A stretch of 64,000 bases of DNA from NCBI GenBank assembly GCA_951406725.2, contig OX597826.1:37386001-37450000 (forward strand). The letters run 5' to 3'. This DNA is from Octopus vulgaris. Lineage: Eukaryota. Shown one piece after another: positions 12,187-53,647 of this stretch. The position numbers were made by a program, and so were the translations under genes. Position 1 is the first letter of the stretch. Each line of letters begins with the position of its first letter. The notes under the pieces were generated by a model. That model worked only from the letters and a program-made list of their open reading frames with translations. It was not told the DNA's origin and searched no databases.

Positions 12187-13387
12187 TATATATACATACA
12201 TATATATATATATACACATATGTGTGTGTGTGTCTGTCTGTCTGTATGACTGTGAGTATCAGTAAATGCTTGCATGTAGAGAAGATCACATGCGTACATC
12301 CAAATCGTGTCAAATGCTTTTTCAGGAACATTGCTTCTCTCTTGTTCATTGGCAAACATAGTTTTGTGCTCTGCTGACCTCCTTTTGTACTAAATACATT
12401 CCGGAAAATTTTCTAAATAAGATTTATTATTTGTTTAGTTACCCGATATATCTTAATAGAGGAAATATTGTGATCCTGTAGATATCAAACTCAGTTTGCA
12501 GCTGTATGTTTGTTGCATATGTTATCAGCGCTGTCGGTGCTGGTCCTTTGATCTTGCTTTCATTTTCTTTAATGCTAAGTTGGTGCTTTCAAGTCGATAT
12601 TCTTAAAATTCTCGCAACATAGCTATAAGCGTTTGTTGCACTTATAGTTACGTTGATGTTGATGATACTCTAGCCATTGTTGCTGAAGTCAGGGAGTGAC
12701 TTACTCTAGATGGAATATACCATTTTTATATGTTATATACTTTGTATAAAATAAAACGAAATTAGCGAGAGAAGAAAATGTTCCTTCCGCACAGGTTATA
12801 ATCTAAAGACAGGAACCAACTTACGTAGTAAAAAAGAGAAACAAAAGATATTTCCTCGGCATGCTCATAATTATTCACGTGTAGTTAAGAAGGAGTGGGA
12901 AAATGTCTGTTTTCAGATACTTTGATGTTATTGATGGATCAACGTCATTTCTATGGATTAGTGACATGGACACAACCTATTGATTGTTGTCGGATTTGTT
13001 TTTCATTCATCTTTCATTGCCAGAACAAACGGAATCATAATAATATCGTACATAACGGATGCGCCGGAAGATAAGGTTTTGTTGCCAGTATTTAGAGTAT
13101 AGGTGAATATGCCATTAATTCCCACATCAATAAAAGGAGAGGAAAGGTGCAGAGATATACTCTCATCATAGAGAAAATACATTTGTCAGCATCGGAAAAG
13201 AGTTGAGGCATTACACTGTAGACTTAGAGATTTGGTTCCGTGTATTCCCACCAACAAGAGTAAGGTTCCGCCGACATATTCTACATGTCGATAAAGGATT
13301 TACGGAAAGACAACATAAGACATATTCAGTCAATTGCGCGCGTACTTGTGTGTGTGAAAGTCTGTGTGTAAGTGTGTGTATGCACAG

Positions 13388-13501
<114 letters not shown>

Positions 13502-13540
13502 ATGTATGCATATGTATGTATATATATATATATATATATA

Positions 13541-13712
13541 GTTAATCCAAACAAGAAAACAAAAAAACACAACAACGCAAGGACGTGGAACAAATAAAGT
13601 ATTATTGGACGCTTAGGAAAGAAGGGAAGAAGGAGGGTTTAACGTTTCGAGCGGAGCTCTTCGTCGGAAACATAGGAGAAGGAAAGATCCCGAGAAGGGA
13701 AGACAGAGTAAA
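13541..13712 (-). mobile_element. Penelope-type pseudo-LTR fragment, family A copy 1
   Basis: Reverse complement aligns with 16600-16770 and is colinear with 15420-15610; abuts a (TA)n tract; contains a hammerhead motif. Confidence 0.75.
13637..13671 (-). ncRNA. Minimal type I hammerhead ribozyme, variant core CCGACGA
   Basis: Minus strand GTTT-CCGACGA-A-GAGC-TCC-GCTC-GAAA-CG-TT-AAAC: helix I GTTT/AAAC, helix II GAGC/GCTC, palindromic helix III AACGTT. Confidence 0.65.
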
Positions 13713-13853
13713 AGAAATGGAAAAAGGATTCACAATGACCTCGAACCCACAAGAGGAAACGAGAGAGACGGAGGCAGGCTGAACACTGTGCAAATATTCT
13801 TTTAAAAGACTTTTCTTTTAATTTTTCCAAAATTTAATTGTTTTCTATTCTTA

Positions 13854-13889
13854 CAGTTGAGGAGGTCTCGATGACAGAAACCAGTACTG
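13854..13889 (+). ncRNA. Decayed type I hammerhead motif (family B)
   Basis: CAG-TTGAGGA-GGTC-TCGAT-GACA-GAAA-CCAG-TA-CTG; three substitutions away from an intact CTGAGGA / GGTC-GACC / ACCGGT motif. Confidence 0.5.
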
Positions 13890-14453
13890 AAATGTTTTTT
13901 TATAAAATTATTTTAGCATTTTCTACCTTGACTATTTTTTCCATATATATCAACTCGTGTGTGCCTTTTCAACCTTCTACACACACACACACACACATGC
14001 ACACGCACACACGAACATACATATATATATATATATATATTATATGCAAGCTTTCTCTCTACTCTCTATGTGCATACAGACGTTATCTATATACAAAGTT
14101 GGTTATATGAAGTTTACACTGTCTTTAGGAGAACTCGCTTGGATAATTACTACATCCTTAGATCCGCTAGCTATGAAACATATGTAGCCTGGATTTTATC
14201 TACTCGATACCTTAACTTTTGGTTGTTTGTTCGCATTTACAACAACGCTTGTTGCTAACCATGAACTATGAAATAAACTTTTTTCAGCTTATCGTACTTC
14301 GATACGGGAAAAATTCACAACCATCTCCCCCCCAAAAAAAAACATTTTTTCGTGAAAGTTGTTTTTTTATATCTGCCGCAGACTGCTTGAAGCTCACTAA
14401 CTTCATACACCTTGATCCGTGGAACTTATCTTTACATATATTTGCAATATATG

Positions 14454-14500
<47 letters not shown>

Positions 14501-14501
<1 letters not shown>

Positions 14502-15379
14502 TTTGAAAATACTAAGAATCAAACATACCCGTCCGATATCTGTAACATCGGACAAACTATGCCAGACATCCAGTACTAGCGAATCCAAAAATACGAATGA
14601 GATCTATTATTCTCCCTGTCCGCCCACGTGAGTCATAGAGCATTCCATTTCTACAGAGGTAAAAACTGCAGTTTAAATTCTTGGAGAGAAAGCATTATAT
14701 TGTTATGAGAAAATGGGGGTCGAATCAATTAATTATTAATAAATTCGACCAAGCAGTATTCGGTATGTAAAGACCATTTACGGTATATTTGAAGTATTAA
14801 TTTATAAAAATATGGTAAAGTAAAAGAATTCACTTTACCACACACCGAACTTTTCCGAAGTAGCAGCCAAAAATTCGTATTTTTGGATTCGCTAGTACTG
14901 GATGTCTGGCATAGTTTGTCCGATGTTACAGATATCGGACGGGTATGTTTGATTCTTAGTATTTTCAAATCTAAATCAAAAGAAATCTCTGAGCTGATGA
15001 AGGAAAAGTGGCGTTTTACCCACAAATCCAGAAACAGACTGTCCTCGGGTATCGTATATGGATGTGATCTTTCATTGTTTTTCCCTTATTCCTATGTGAG
15101 TTATTTTTCTGAGTATACATTGTCTGGAGACTTTTATTTGCAGTTGAAGAAATAGCCAAGTTTTTGGCTGCTATTTCGGAAAAGTTCGGTGTGTGGTAAA
15201 GTGAATTCTTTTACTTTACCATATTTTTATAAATTAATACTTCAAATATACCGTAAATGGTCTTTACATACCGAATACTGCTTGGTCGAATTTATTAATA
15301 ATTAATTGATTCGACCCCCATTTTCTCATAACAATATAATGCTTTCTCTCCAAGAATTTAAACTGCAGTTTTTACCTCT
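14501..15379 (+). mobile_element. Young Penelope-type/retrozyme-like element with interlocked inverted repeats (family C)
   Basis: A 14501-14598 = revcomp of 14873-14970 (98 bp); B 14655-14873 = revcomp of 15161-15379 (219 bp, one mismatch seen); (TA)n on both sides; hammerhead inside. Confidence 0.85.
14988..15049 (+). ncRNA. Type I hammerhead ribozyme, intact core
   Basis: TCTGAG-CTGATGA-A-GGA..GTGG..CCAC..TCC-A-GAAA-CAG-A-CTG-TC-CTCGGG: 6-bp helix I with G-U pairs, two-part helix II, GUC cleavage triplet at 15041-15043. Confidence 0.8.
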
Positions 15380-15419
15380 ATATATATACATATATATACA
15401 TATATTATATATATATATG

Positions 15420-15610
15420 CAATAAAAAACAAGCACAAAAATCACAACATCGCGAAGACTTGGTACTTGTAAAGTATTAGCAGACGCTCAGGGAAGGAGA
15501 GAAAGATGGCGGAACGTTTCGAGCAGACGCTCTTCTTCGGAAAAAGAGGGAAGTCCAATAGAAGAGAAGACGGAGGAAGAAAATCGCCAATAATTCACAT
15601 GTGGCTACGT
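15420..15610 (-). mobile_element. Penelope-type pseudo-LTR, family A copy 2, with CCGAAGA hammerhead variant at 15511-15544
   Basis: Minus strand CCGAAGA-A-GAGC-GTCT-GCTC-GAAACGTT; flanks align with 13541-13712. Confidence 0.65.
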
Positions 15611-16327
15611 TTTGAACTGATCGGAAGGGAATGGGTGAAGAAAAAGATCTTTCTAAGACAGGAGAGTGTAAGAGAAGGAGTTATGTGTGGGCATGTACGT
15701 GCACTCAAGTCTGTGTATGTGCGCATGTGTATGCGTTGTGTGTGTATGTGTGTGTGTGTGTGTGGTTTTGGCTGTATATAAGTGTATGAGTGAGTGAACT
15801 CTGTGTCGCTTAATGTTGTAGGAAGAATTTAGTAGCAGGAGTGGCAGTCTTTTGTGTAGTTGTGTGTCTCTTCACATGTTTGTAGAGGAATGGTCTGTAG
15901 AAAGGCGTTTAGATGGCAATTCGAAGTATGTGTGTGTATGTACGTGTGTGCCTGTATGCATATGTTGTGCGTGTTTTGTGTGTAGTTTTGTGTGTAATGT
16001 AAACACTTATACATACCATACGAACACAACGTATCCACAGAGTATATACAAATGTTCACGCTTATACATTCGTGGAAGGATTTTTATCTTGTCCATCCAA
16101 TTTTTCGTTATACATGCGTGGCTGAGATGAACAAGATAGAAATCCGTTCATGGATGCATAAGCGTGAACATTTGTATATACTCTGTGTTCGTATGGTATG
16201 TGTAAGTATATATTTCTGGCTACGTTTGCACTGACGAGTGGAGAGCGTGTTGCAGCGGTGTAAATCAGTTTTGGGTGTTGCATTATGTTTATACCGATAT
16301 AATGTAGAATAAATATAATAATATTAG

Positions 16328-16513
16328 TTCTAGGATGGAATTTATAAATAGTTAATACATCGGTACACGAAACCAATCAATGATGCTGATCAACCAGATG
16401 CCCACGGATTATACAGAGAATATCCCAAGAATACCGACTCTGATGTTAAAATCATGTGGTTTGGGGAAACGCGCGTAGCGTTGTATTAAATATTTATAAA
16501 TTCCATCCTAGAA
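16328..16513 (+). mobile_element. Small inverted-end Penelope-type element (family D) with decayed hammerhead at 16430-16487
   Basis: Arms 16328-16369 and 16472-16513 are imperfect reverse complements; AATAC..CTGATGT..AAATCA-TG-TGGTTT..GAAA-CGCGCG-TA-GCGTTGTATT. Confidence 0.6.
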
Positions 16514-16577: not shown

Positions 16578-16770
16578 TGACCGCGTGTGTACCGTTTGCG
16601 ATTTTTTTCCTCCGTCTTCCCTTCTCTGGATCTGTCCTTTTCCTATGTTTCTGACGAAGAGCTCCGCTCAAAATGTAAGGCCTTCCTTCTTCCCTTCCTC
16701 CGTGAGTGTCCAATAATATTATATTTGTTCTACGTCCTCGCGTAGTTGTGTTTTCATGCTTGGATTAACT
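16578..16770 (+). mobile_element. Penelope-type pseudo-LTR, family A copy 3, with hammerhead remnant at 16647-16681
   Basis: GTTT-CTGACGA-A-GAGC-TCC-GCTC-AAAATGTA: canonical CTGACGA retained, GAAACGT changed by two CpG-type transitions; ends at (TA)n. Confidence 0.7.
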
Positions 16771-17006: not shown

Positions 17007-19514
17007 AATATACATATACAAAATTATCAAAAGCTACATATTACTGAGATTGGCTCTTATCCTTCTAATCCTAGACTCCATTTCTTACATATTTTATGGC
17101 GTATTGCTTTTCAGTGCTCTTTTCCATAAGTATAAATGCTTTGCCTAATGAAAGTTTGCTTCATTTGTGAGACTTCGACGAAGATAGAAAGTGATACACA
17201 ATCACTCAGCTCTGAGAGTATTGCATCTCACTGCAGAAGCTGCTTTAAGCAAATGAAGTTCATTACATAACTTCTTGTCCTCTTGCAATTTATTCAATTT
17301 CTCATTTATACATTCATATATATGTACTATATATATATATATGTGTGTGTGTGTTTGTGTAGGTATGTATGTATTTATGCATGCATGTAATATACACATA
17401 CAAATTATACCGCATACAAGTGTGTATTGGAAGATATAAGTTTAATTGAAGAATTTGTTTTGAATTGTCAAACATATTCCTTTTACGTAAGAAATTAGTT
17501 ATTAATGAAAGTTTCCATCATTGATATATTTTTAACATATAAAGTGCGCTCTGTACAGTTGAATCAAATATAGAAACGGAGCGAAGTTCTTTATTGGAGA
17601 ACTTATTAGCTGGAAAATGGAATGTCCTCTAGTTAACTTTGTCATTGTTTAATTTAATATTTATTCCGAAATAGATATAAATGGATAGTTATAACAACAC
17701 TTATTCACGCCAACCTATGCACTAAGACCAGCAGTCTTTCATAGAATTTATTATAACAAATGCCAATATTGCTGCAACAGCATCTGGCTTGCTGCTAGAC
17801 ACAACGGAAACACAAAGCCTAGTATGGTATTATAATGGCAAGCTTGCAACTATGAGCGAAGAGATGGAGAAATGAAAACAGGAGAACAGAAATAAAACCA
17901 ATTCATTGATTAAATTAGAGTCATTAGGTATAGTTCTAGGGGTTGTCTTATACAGATTTTGCAATTTCATTCGCATATAAGAGAAAAGTGATTTGAAATT
18001 TTCTTAGCGTTCAATTTAGATAGCTGGAACAATGAAAGAATTTCTGTACGGCTCGGATTTATGTTCTTGCAAGGAAATCTCTTCTTATGTCGATGATCTG
18101 ATGAATGGTTTCAATAAAAGATCAAGCCAGCGTCTTCCGGTGCACAACTTAATGGAGTTTAAGTAGTTTCCATGTTTAGTCTTTATAAAGAAAGTTTCCA
18201 TAATATGGCTAGCAATCTCAACGAATGCATTTCAAATGCGTTCTGTATAACGGTGGCCGGAAGGAGAATGCTATAGTGAATCACCGAAATCACTAACAAA
18301 ACTCGATAATGGTCATGTAGAAGAAATATTGAACGGAGAAAGCTATATGGAAATTAAAATAAATATCAGTAATAACTGTAGAGTGGACTTAATTAATTTC
18401 GTTTCCAATATTTAAACATGAAATTCTTCTACGAAATAGTTTCGGTATATATAAACTTACGACGATACATGTATTTTCTGAGGAGTGCTAAATATAGGCT
18501 AGGAAATATGTAGAAATGGCGCACATAAATAGAGAGGCTAAATTAGAAGAACCAGGTAAATATTGTACAAGCACACACTTAGTCATTTACACACACACAC
18601 ACACACACACCGTGTGTGTGTGTGTGTGTAAGGGAGAGATAGTGTTAAGCTTATACTGACATGAAGCATGTTTACAATCAAAGACTTACAACCAATTAAC
18701 GAAAGTAGAAATTGCGAATTTATGAATGAAATGAAAAAAGGTCTGAATAAAACTCGCTGCTGAAATAATTGCTCGATAAGACTAATGCAACTCAAATATT
18801 TCATGAGGTCAAATAATTTGGCTCAAACAGAAATTAACTACCTCCGCTGCACAAATTAAAAACCTTATTCACACATACATCCATGGACATAGAAGTAAAG
18901 AATTTTAACATTTCTATACTTACTTTCAGTCAAATCTGGGTTATTTTCCACCTTAGAAGTATTTTTATTCTACTAAGCTCTTAAGCATATTTCGATTCTC
19001 TTAAACATATTTCGTAGTAATTAATATACTATATGAAAAGTGGCCATTAAATACAGAACTATATTTCTAGCGCAAATAGAATTCACACTGAAATTTCTTT
19101 ACACGGAATTTGTTGTCGCTAACATATATATCCATTGTATATCTATATTCAGGTGCCAACTCACTTGACTAATACCATAGAATATTTTCAAACAATATAC
19201 ACATGTGTGTCTATATACCTAGATATACATGTGTATATGTTGTGTGTGGTGGTGTTTTAGGAGAGAAGGCAGCGACCATGACAGCTTATAGAGTCTCTGA
19301 GGTCGGTGGGATGGAGGGATGAGGATATTCTCCAGTCGAAGCTCCAATCAGAATGCTTACAATAAAGCAGACTTCAGTAGAGTCAGCCGAGGTGCCAGGT
19401 GGACGTGTTAAACGGGGACAGTTTCAGTCTGTTTCCGGATTAATGAACCACTGAGTGAATGGATGGATGGGGAGGAAGAAGGGTATGGGATATTGGTTAG
19501 TTTCTCAAGAAGTC

Positions 19515-20315
19515 TGGAAGATAAGTGACTTACCCAACTCGAAGACAGATTTTGCTGTGGAGAAATGCTTTGAGATAATCTGTGAGAGTGAGGTAGAGTT
19601 CCGTAAAGTCAACACGAGGGAACTGGGCCTGCTTCTTAAACTGAGCTATGACAGTAACTATGAAAACAAACATGACCTTAGTAGATTCTGCACCACCAGG
19701 TCACAGAGGAGAACACCACCTCGCGAGCGAAGAAAAGCATCACACCCACCCAAGATGCTGAGAACAACACACTGGTGGAAAGAACGATTGCACATGCAAT
19801 AGGGGCTAGCATAAGAACCACCTTGAAGAAACACTTAGTAAAGTCTAACAAGAAAAGATACATGCAGGTTCAAGGTGCAGCTATTAGTGTCCATGCGGCT
19901 AGAGATGTGGCCAGCCTGTTCATGACTTGGTGTGACAGAAAACTAAAACAATATTTAACCGAACAATCCACTACTATTGTTTTACCTTAATGTAGGTGTG
20001 TAGATGACATTAACATTCTAGTTAGGACAAATTTTTGTAAATTCAATGTAGAAACCGAGAGGAGCATAATGGAGAGCATCCAGCTTGTAGCTAACTCCAT
20101 CCACCAAAGAATCAAAGTAACTATAAATTACCACCACTAGGCACCCCAACAATAGACTCTCCGTCCTTGATACTGAAATTGGGTTCGATACTATGAACAG
20201 CAGTGTGCAACTCCTCCACTCCTATTACATGAATCATATAGCTTCTAAATATGTTGTTCACAAGAACTCACCTTTGTCACACAACATGGAAATCAATATA
20301 CTGATGGCAAACCTA
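19515..20315 (+). pseudogene. Decayed Penelope-like element reverse transcriptase fragment
   Basis: Across frameshifts and one stop: SDLPN (motif A remnant), QVQGAAIS..ARDVASLFMTWCD (motif B'), RCVDDINI (YxDD, 19994-20017), IQLVANSIHQRIKVTINY, NNRLSVLDTE (motif E), LLHSYYMNHIASKYVVHKNSPL (thumb). Confidence 0.8.
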
Positions 20316-21056
20316 CATATATATTTTTTTATATATGTATATATATATATATATACTGAATATTCTATGCACATTAAAACCTGCAAGGAATGGATTTACA
20401 TTTATATACATATATTCTCTCACAGTTACATATTTAATATTTGCATATTTGCATGTAGCTACGTATGTGTCTATGCATCAAACTTGCACCACTTCGAAGT
20501 TCTACCCTTCGTTTCTTATAGCTTTCATTACAAATGCTGGAGTTGCGATTCAGATTCGGAATGAGCTCGTCTCCGAAATATAAACGATTTCAGCATTTAA
20601 TTCAGGATATTTTGTTGTTAACTACATGAAAATACAATTTTGAGATTCCTGTAGTCCAGCAAATATTGATCAGCACCGTTTACAGAATTTGAGCTCAGTT
20701 TTCTTCTAAAGACTTTCAATTTCCATATTCCAAATATTAACTCTTTCAGTCTCTGCAACTTCGCTTGTTTACCAAATTCACAGCATGAATACTAATTTTC
20801 TATTCGAACAATAAAAGAGCTATTTCTATACGAACAAATACATAACTAACCAGGTTTTTTTTTCTAGAAACATGATATTTTAATGAAATCATAATTATAT
20901 TATATCAGTATTTGACATGAATACCATATTCATTGGTCAAAACCCCACCATACATACATACAAACACACACACATATATATATGTGTGTGTGTATTTTGT
21001 ATATATATATATGTATATATATATATATTGTATGTGTAAATATATATATATATATT

Positions 21057-45377: not shown

Positions 45378-45754
45378 AAATAGAGAATACCAAACGAGTT
45401 CCCTATGGATACCGTATTTATTACAACGAGTGGCTTGTAAACGAGTTGTAATAAATACGGTCTCCATAAGAAATGAGTTTGGTATTTTATTTATTACACA
45501 CGAATAAACGACCATATTTTATTAACCCAGTAACTAAATTCTTCAGGTTTAGTTATAACTTATGAATGACAAAAGTAGTGCCGTCACCGTGACCTCAAAT
45601 CATCACCATGGATTGACCAATCAGAAGCAGCGCTGTCACCGTGACCTCGGGTTATCACCACGGATTGACCAATCAGAAGCAGCGCTCGCAGTATCTGACA
45701 TATGTTAGATACCAAAAATATCTCAAAGTGTTCTCACTCACATGTGTGTAATAA
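45378..45754. mobile_element. Probable non-autonomous DNA element: 100-bp palindrome plus 52-bp tandem duplication
   Basis: Hairpin 45386-45486; units 45583-45634 and 45635-45686; TTATTACACAC (45491) inverted with GTGTGTAATAA (~45744). Confidence 0.55.
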
Positions 45755-52855: not shown

Positions 52856-53539
52856 AATGATAAAAAGAATATATAACATGCAATGCATCTTTGTGCATGT
52901 GTAAAAGTATAATTGATGCATGTACGTTATCGAAGAGCAGCATTCTGTATGATTAGTTATTTCATATTTCACTTACAGATCTTTTTCTTTATTTACTTTG
53001 TAAGGAGAAACATACAAATAAGAAAGAAGACAGCAAAGGACCACTGATGCGGTCACAGGAAAATGACGAAAGAACTCTGGCCGAAATAAGATTAAGATTA
53101 ATGCAAAAAATAAATAACGCTGAAGCAAAGTAACACCAAATATATAGTACGTGTGTTTTTATTGGCTAAACTGGCAAAATGACCATTCCTAAATACAACA
53201 CTATGATTTCAAATGTATATATATATATACAGACAGGCACGAACACATGCACACAAATATATATATATATATACACACACGCAAATGTATATATGCATAT
53301 AGGAGCCTGCGAATCGACCGTAATCCTTATAATGACAAGTGGCCCCTAGAGGAGCTTTATGGGATAGCCAAGCGATTCTATGAATCCATATATTACACTA
53401 CAAATTTATATGTGTATATATATGCGCTCGTGTGTGTGTTGTGTGTGTGCGCGAGCGCGCGTATGCGCCCTGGCACGCGTGTGTGTGTGTTAAGTAAAAT
53501 GAGACAATAAAGCCTTCAGGACTCATTTATAAAGAGAAA

Positions 53540-53587
53540 GTCTTACAGCTGTTTCTGGGATGTTAGGAATGTCCCTTCATCAGAAAC
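53540..53587 (-). ncRNA. Minimal type I hammerhead ribozyme, intact core (family G)
   Basis: Minus strand GTTT-CTGATGA-A-GGGA-CATTCCTAACA-TCCC-A-GAAA-CAGCTG-TA-AGAC; lies in a ~110-bp island between (TG)n and (TA)n. Confidence 0.8.
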
Positions 53588-53598
53588 GATGTGAGATG

Positions 53599-53647
<49 letters not shown>

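Follow-up and report, generated by a model that had tools for sequence, protein, structure and literature searches.

The element at positions 14501-15379 of a 64,000-nucleotide stretch of Octopus vulgaris DNA (hereafter the window) consists of two copies, each truncated at its 5' end, of a 563-nt hammerhead repeat that is multicopy and non-coding; they are arranged head to head within (TA)n. We consider it likely that both copies arose in one recent, twin-primed insertion of a non-LTR retrozyme, with a Penelope-type reverse transcriptase (RT) and endonuclease acting in trans.

Two interlocked arms in a (TA)n array

Self-comparison of the window reproduced exactly the arm coordinates given in an earlier, sequence-only reading, which had described the arms as near-perfect and interlocked. 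Arms A (14501-14598) and A' (14873-14970) are perfect reverse complements (98 of 98 positions, no mismatch over 98 bp), and arm B (14655-14873) is an inverted match to B' (15161-15379) at 218 of 219 positions, the sole mismatch being 14860/15174. The inverted pairs have BLAST E values within the window of 4e-111 and 2e-46 and are therefore not chance matches; no further copy of the arms was found within the 64 kb. Between them lie the spacers x (14599-14654, 56 nt) and y (14971-15160, 190 nt), while base 14873 is common to B and A', and the segments add up to a unit of 98 + 190 + 219 + 56 = 563 nt. In the sense of the hammerhead, both arms begin at the centre and run outward:

14501-14873, minus strand: left arm B'-x'-A', a 5'-truncated copy of 373 nt with its 3' end at the left flank
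14501-14598, minus strand: segment A, 98 nt, second copy of A' (98/98)
14599-14654, minus strand: segment x, 56 nt, joining the unit end to the unit start (joint 14599/14873 in 4 of 4 runs, see below)
14655-14873, minus strand: segment B, 219 nt, second copy of B' (218/219)
14873-15379, plus strand: right arm A'-y-B', a 5'-truncated copy of 507 nt with its 3' end at the right flank, crossing the predicted hammerhead cut site
14447-14500, no strand: (TA)n target array of the left flank, from the sequence
15380-15418, no strand: (TA)n target array of the right flank, in which an older hammerhead repeat of a different kind also has its 3' end

Within the unit, the starts of the two arms are separated by 288 nt and their 3' ends by x' plus A', or 154 nt. 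Both outer ends adjoin (TA)n, in a window that is AT-rich and full of microsatellites. A MITE or DNA transposon was rejected because terminal inverted repeats are absent, the outer ends A and B' not being complementary to each other. A 115-codon frame at 14808-15155 was also rejected as a gene; it crosses the inversion junction and was taken as chance. The proposal that the two duplexes would clash sterically in RNA is geometrically reasonable, as 56 nt cannot span a 219-bp helix, but we regard such a clash as a by-product of insertion.

The central stretch is complementary to both terminal parts and thereby recalls the lICR/rICR of DIRS elements. A non-autonomous DIRS-like element, whose internal complementary region would pair with both ends, nevertheless has almost no probability in our estimate: the order is reversed relative to the lITR-lICR-rICR-rITR arrangement given in the available text of PMC3266345, the central join corresponds to the inner ends of A and B' instead of their outer ones, the termini are not ITRs and DIRS elements leave no target-site duplication (TSD), and other copies are built differently, in a unit order that contradicts this structure.

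The 563-nt unit in other copies

We drew on at least 24 sequencing runs from 9 studies, and 20 of 24 hold part of the element. Contigs of four runs from four studies (X1, X2, X12 and X13) were compared to 14599-15160, which holds each segment once. No RNA run was listed among those containing the element; X2 and X13 may be RNA, and we do not count them as evidence of expression. The x'-A' joint was seen in 4 of the 4 runs. Record 19 of X2 (504 nt) contains the full B', x' and A' followed by 119 nt of y to 15089 (4 differences in 494), and record 16 of X13 (468 nt) runs from (TA)n through the last 16 nt of B', x', A' and y into the first 66 nt of B' (2 differences in 425). A diverged copy in X12 (record 9; 24 differences) likewise has the order B'-x'-A'-y, and the y-B' joint is present in X1 and X13 and appears as loose ends in X12 and X2. 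Since x'-A'-y is absent as one piece at the locus, such contigs come from other copies, and their order B'-x'-A'-y-B' indicates that the 563-nt unit is real and multicopy. The permuted unit deduced earlier from the locus is thus borne out, and B, x and A are joined elsewhere in the genome as that deduction demanded.

These contigs are graph paths that could join parts of different copies, and they show presence only. Single X12 contigs reach word depths of 686-1854 compared with 12-31 for others, which implies many copies of the unit, the copy number itself not being derivable from these values. Two successive hammerheads occur in no listed contig (the locus carries one, and the best 29 of 708 pieces are too short for two), so we infer the full tandem array. 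The B/A' junction at 14873 is crossed by none of the best 29 of 708 pieces; a contig of a single-copy junction would be short, and the absence counts neither for nor against the junction. Exact-pattern scans of metagenome contigs and prokaryote genomes returned no copy of the element and no autonomous partner. A>G differences among the copies were rejected as RNA editing, for they also occur in DNA runs.

Contigs of X1, X12 and X13 that end at 15006 represent a related subfamily, whose likeness across A' and the hammerhead's first half is about 87-89%. This subfamily replaces the distal sequence of helix II and keeps a 5-bp stem, as read from a loose end of X13 record 18, one low-depth contig; X1 records 5 and 6 and X12 record 15 end at the same place. 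We treat the divergence at 15006 as a lead to an autonomous partner. Together with the PLE-type hammerhead (PLE, Penelope-type element), a subfamily that departs just after the start of helix II would also suit a reading in which the 563 nt belong to an autonomous Penelope element, as its pseudo-LTR or a terminal part, and are not a free non-autonomous unit. This is very improbable, given that all four segment joints close into a loop free of open reading frames (ORFs) and that the 19 best-supported of 85 loose ends share no branch into other sequence.

A PLE-type hammerhead motif in the y segment

As had been claimed, the unit carries one hammerhead, a single motif in y:

14988-15049, plus strand: type I hammerhead motif (core plus helices I-III), predicted cut at 15043/15044

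Helix I pairs 14988-14993 with 15044-15049 (6 bp) and the core comprises 14994-15000 and GAAA at 15031-15034, while helix II (15002-15029) is interrupted, with an A on either side of its base, and helix III (15034-15042) is short and near-palindromic, with three pairs and a 3-nt loop. The motif matches PLE hammerheads, including the unpaired base after A9 and the long helix II, save for a surplus A preceding G12 that goes unmentioned in the available text of PMC4209133. Rfam gave no hammerhead match over the whole window at gathering score, and 42 matches over 13000-16500 at E up to 10, none of them a hammerhead. A pairing descriptor of helices I and II, composed after the 14988-15049 motif had been seen, found 3 hits in the window versus 0 in 60 shuffled windows. 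With a looser hammerhead pattern, 7 viral-contig matches were obtained and taken as chance.

The catalytic monomer fold is predicted at -9.0 kcal/mol, 4 kcal/mol higher than a mis-paired fold (-13.2 kcal/mol), and two strands of helix III are predicted to form a self-duplex of -6.9 kcal/mol. From these values the hammerhead is predicted to be weak as a monomer, with cleavage possible as a dimer. Among predicted Xenopus retrozyme dimers, 1 of 9 was cleaved in vitro (10.64898/2026.07.22.740005).

Coding content and predicted fold

Looped into a circle, the unit has a GC content of 35% and a longest stop-to-stop frame of 95 codons, and an ORF for RT plus GIY-YIG is absent from it. The circular minimum free energy of the hammerhead strand was -161.3 versus -118.2 ± 6.5 in 40 shuffles (z = -6.65), whereas the antisense strand gave z = -3.23 and contained 9 G-U pairs compared with 30. 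Control stretches (22 of 105 candidates) ranged from z = 0.64 to -5.17, none as low as the unit. The sole control with z near -5 is a 42-bp inverted repeat at 45386-45486 (86%, 17-nt spacer), and another hairpin lies at 16064-16159.

The unit RNA is predicted to form a closed rod, in which x' pairs along y in the middle, flanked on one side by the hammerhead and an A' hairpin and on the other by the B' hairpins. The predicted duplex of x' (14599-14654) with y has an energy of -43.7 kcal/mol, and 0 of 500 shuffles were as strong:

15066-15126, plus strand: strand of y predicted to pair along x' in the rod middle, helix probabilities 0.75-0.99

The 22 listed family variants comprise 11 that are unpaired, 7 that keep a pair and 4 that break one, of which one (14721) is common. 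Unpaired and pair-keeping variants together account for 18 of 22 versus a null of 12.6 ± 1.9 (p = 0.005), in a test that is somewhat biased because the fold was predicted from this locus copy. The predicted rod fits a circle and can equally form in a tandem transcript. The minus strand of x' (14599-14654) also carries adjacent motifs that we take to be AP-1-like, E-box-like and GC-box-like, and x' is possibly an internal promoter piece, although it pairs with y in the predicted RNA.

Target site, junction and age

Each flank carries the same 14 nt, a TA repeat interrupted by one C:

14487-14500, plus strand: likely target-site duplication, left copy, 14 nt, identical to 15380-15393
15380-15393, plus strand: likely target-site duplication, right copy, 14 nt, identical to 14487-14500

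When the window's 32 arrays were paired at random 20000 times, 1.0% of the pairings shared at least 14 nt that included a C or G. This 14-bp repeat is likely a target-site duplication, though it lies in low-complexity DNA. The arms meet at the centre in a short hairpin:

14867-14886, no strand: inversion junction with an 8-bp hairpin, 14867-14874 pairing with 14879-14886 around a 4-nt loop

When the unit was joined to itself head to head at random, 160 of 60804 joins (0.26%) formed a stem of at least 8 bp. The arms also share their alleles at 14726 and 14913, which are minority alleles in X1 and X12. Both X2 and X13 contain near-identical contigs that point to a young subfamily, so the shared alleles are no proof of a single template.

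Such PLE structures are known to trouble short-read assemblies (PMC8557442), and collapsed repeat copies might have been joined in inverted order during assembly. We hold this to be very improbable in view of the matching 14-nt flanks on both sides (null 1.0%), the non-random hairpin at the junction and the two minority alleles common to the arms.

The arms differ at 1 of 316 positions (0.3%, 95% interval 0.008-1.75%). This supports the young insertion proposed by the sequence-only reading, and gene conversion between the arms could also have lowered the difference. Taken as a whole, that reading was supported in part; it did not include the likely target-site duplication, the hairpin at the junction or the predicted rod.

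A proposed twin-primed insertion

PLEs typically carry an inverted, 5'-truncated copy and favour (TA)n as target (PMC8557442), and the head-to-head, 5'-truncated arms support the Penelope-type inversion suggested for this locus. In Adineta, head-to-head pLTRs occur with TSDs of 8-10 bp and junction palindromes (PMC3846280). The purified PLE protein PAc, a predicted dimer, cuts AT-rich DNA, extends both strands, starts reverse transcription internally and uses uncleaved RNA (PMC11167929).

We propose that a GIY-YIG endonuclease would nick the TA array on each strand, with a stagger of about 14 nt, and that both target 3' ends would then prime internally on an RNA of more than unit length, one from the end of B' to give 507 nt of cDNA that includes the hammerhead site, the other from the end of A' to give 373 nt. 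Each cDNA would pass the other's start, either on two RNA molecules or with strand displacement, so that A and B would be copied twice. The 3' end of the longer cDNA would snap back and copy about 6 nt of itself, thereby acquiring 7-8 nt that can pair with the other cDNA's end and leaving the 8-bp junction hairpin, and fill-in would yield the 14-bp duplication. Snap-back joining of this kind resembles SD-MMEJ, and junction hairpins mark synthesis-dependent end joining.

It counts against twin priming that snap-back would start from 2 paired bases only, and that the overlaps are 98 and 219 nt with 3' ends 154 nt apart. Twin priming of L1, as described in the available text of PMC11702581, shows overlaps or gaps of 1-10 bp only. 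The locus is like L1 insertions in the inverted and direct arms that each start from one target end, in its short microhomology and in its TSD (12-18 bp in L1); it differs in the size of its overlaps, in lacking poly(A) and in having a permutable repeat as template.

The junction palindrome (8 bp, null 0.26%) would equally suit antisense self-priming (Arkhipova's model), in which the 3' end of an antisense tandem RNA loops back to prime sense cDNA and the resulting hairpin is integrated; palindromes at head-to-head PLE junctions are so read in PMC3846280. We judge this route unlikely for the present locus. A simple fold-back would produce a nested palindrome, whereas the arms here start 288 nt apart and each runs into sequence that the other lacks (x or y), and the fold signal and the G-U pairs both suggest that the RNA was the hammerhead strand. 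The idea that a single cDNA simply folded back was rejected because each arm continues into x or y.

A junction hairpin would also accord with a rearrangement at the DNA level, by a replication template switch or break repair that inverted part of an older tandem copy on site, but we find this explanation distinctly improbable, more so than self-priming. Both outer ends are 3' ends that adjoin (TA)n with a likely 14-bp duplication, no leftover of further units lies beside the element, and similar B-to-A'/y joints with other breakpoints occur in X12 and X1. The X12 joint connects 14764 to 14891 on the same strand at depth 336, and the X1 joint connects 14717 to 14972, likewise on the same strand, at depth 37, the short side in each comprising 29 letters only. 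They hint that inversion with other breakpoints recurs in the family, and the depth of the X12 joint may mean that the inverted form has itself been amplified.

For the twin-primed insertion that we favour, the template was not a cleaved linear monomer, since the right arm crosses the predicted cut site. A re-ligated circle and an uncleaved tandem would yield the same sequence. We give the uncleaved tandem transcript about an even chance and the re-ligated 563-nt circle a somewhat smaller one, with a slim share for other routes. A more specific version, in which RT acts on a covalently closed 563-nt retrozyme circle with two active sites extending primers on opposite strands, each displacing the other's start, and the inverted products can be amplified again, is put forward tentatively and seems to us rather doubtful.

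Relation to known elements

The unit fits a non-LTR retrozyme, a non-autonomous Penelope derivative. It has a type I hammerhead and head-to-tail unit order, is non-coding, measures 563 nt at 35% GC and, by prediction, forms a stable self-paired monomer (z = -6.65; p = 0.005). Retrozymes have been characterized as PLE derivatives of 51-972 bp (10.64898/2026.07.22.740005, whose supplements may list related families). Metazoan non-LTR retrozymes (PMC7229834; 10.64898/2026.07.22.740005) share with the unit its lack of coding capacity, one type I hammerhead, low GC, a size within this range, head-to-tail order, strong predicted self-pairing and a weak, near-palindromic helix III suited to dimer cleavage. 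Coral, mussel and axolotl retrozyme units span 220-390 nt, whereas the unit here is longer. The locus copy further combines one hammerhead with an inversion, and the word 'inverted' is absent from the available text of PMC7229834.

The insertion itself has Penelope-type traits, with a head-to-head, inverted, 5'-truncated copy, a (TA)n target with a likely TSD and a junction palindrome, all of which are found in PLEs with an inverted 5' pLTR (PMC3846280, PMC8557442, PMC4209133). The optional PLE tail of 30-40 bp is lacking, the two 3' ends being 154 nt apart in the unit. Unlike those PLEs, the locus has no RT or GIY-YIG ORF, and its arms start and end at different unit positions, which makes the inverted repeats interlocked rather than terminal. 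Because inverted 5' copies are standard for PLEs, the locus belongs to a known class; what is unusual is how large its overlaps are, at 98 and 219 nt. Paired hammerheads on opposite strands, separated by 100-700 bp, have been noted (PMC4209133), and retrozymes, inverted PLE ends and the circle hypothesis are all already in print. Our literature search, with subscription papers and Repbase outside its scope, found no description of the 563-nt family or of a twin-primed retrozyme, and the available text of PMC7761336 and PMC3649969 holds nothing that contradicts this.

Neighbouring repeats

A second repeat with a minimal PLE-type hammerhead occurs at 13540-13800 (minus), about 15420-15600 (minus) and 16592-16770 (plus), in copies that are 76-81% alike. 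Their hammerhead cores lie at 13667, 15540 and about 16652, and each copy ends about 120 nt downstream in (TA)n. The copy at about 15420-15600 is older and directly adjoins the right flank of the element, and the two others form an opposite, 167-nt inverted pair around it (13557-13723 and 16595-16761, 83%). A short piece at 53520-53600 (minus), between (TA)n and (CA)n, carries a hammerhead built like the locus motif; the pairing descriptor places it at 53583 (minus), with A/A at the helix II base and a helix III formed by a perfect 8-nt palindrome.

Decayed RT-like frames, broken by a TA run and not tied to the element, occupy 19455-20330 (plus). We presume a likeness to PLE RT motifs 4 and 5. 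Four frames gave no Pfam match, and a homolog search limited to the longer proteins found none. In the Atlas, the best score was 0.96 to eukaryote clusters, and the nearest named family was RVT_1 (0.90, 14% of members).

Significance

The origin of tandem and inverted PLE ends has been termed an open question (PMC8557442), and a circular PLE intermediate has merely been proposed (PMC4209133, PMC7229834). The classes concerned are already described, and to them the locus adds a longer retrozyme unit with strong predicted structure. Two priming sites, two stops, a target duplication and a junction hairpin can all be read here in less than 900 bp. As the steps of insertion are readable in a young, short and multicopy family, surveying it with long reads could help to decide between twin priming and antisense self-priming, and between a circular and a tandem template. 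If the circle reading is true, family-wide positions of arm starts and ends would test the proposed circular Penelope intermediate and explain inverted pLTRs.
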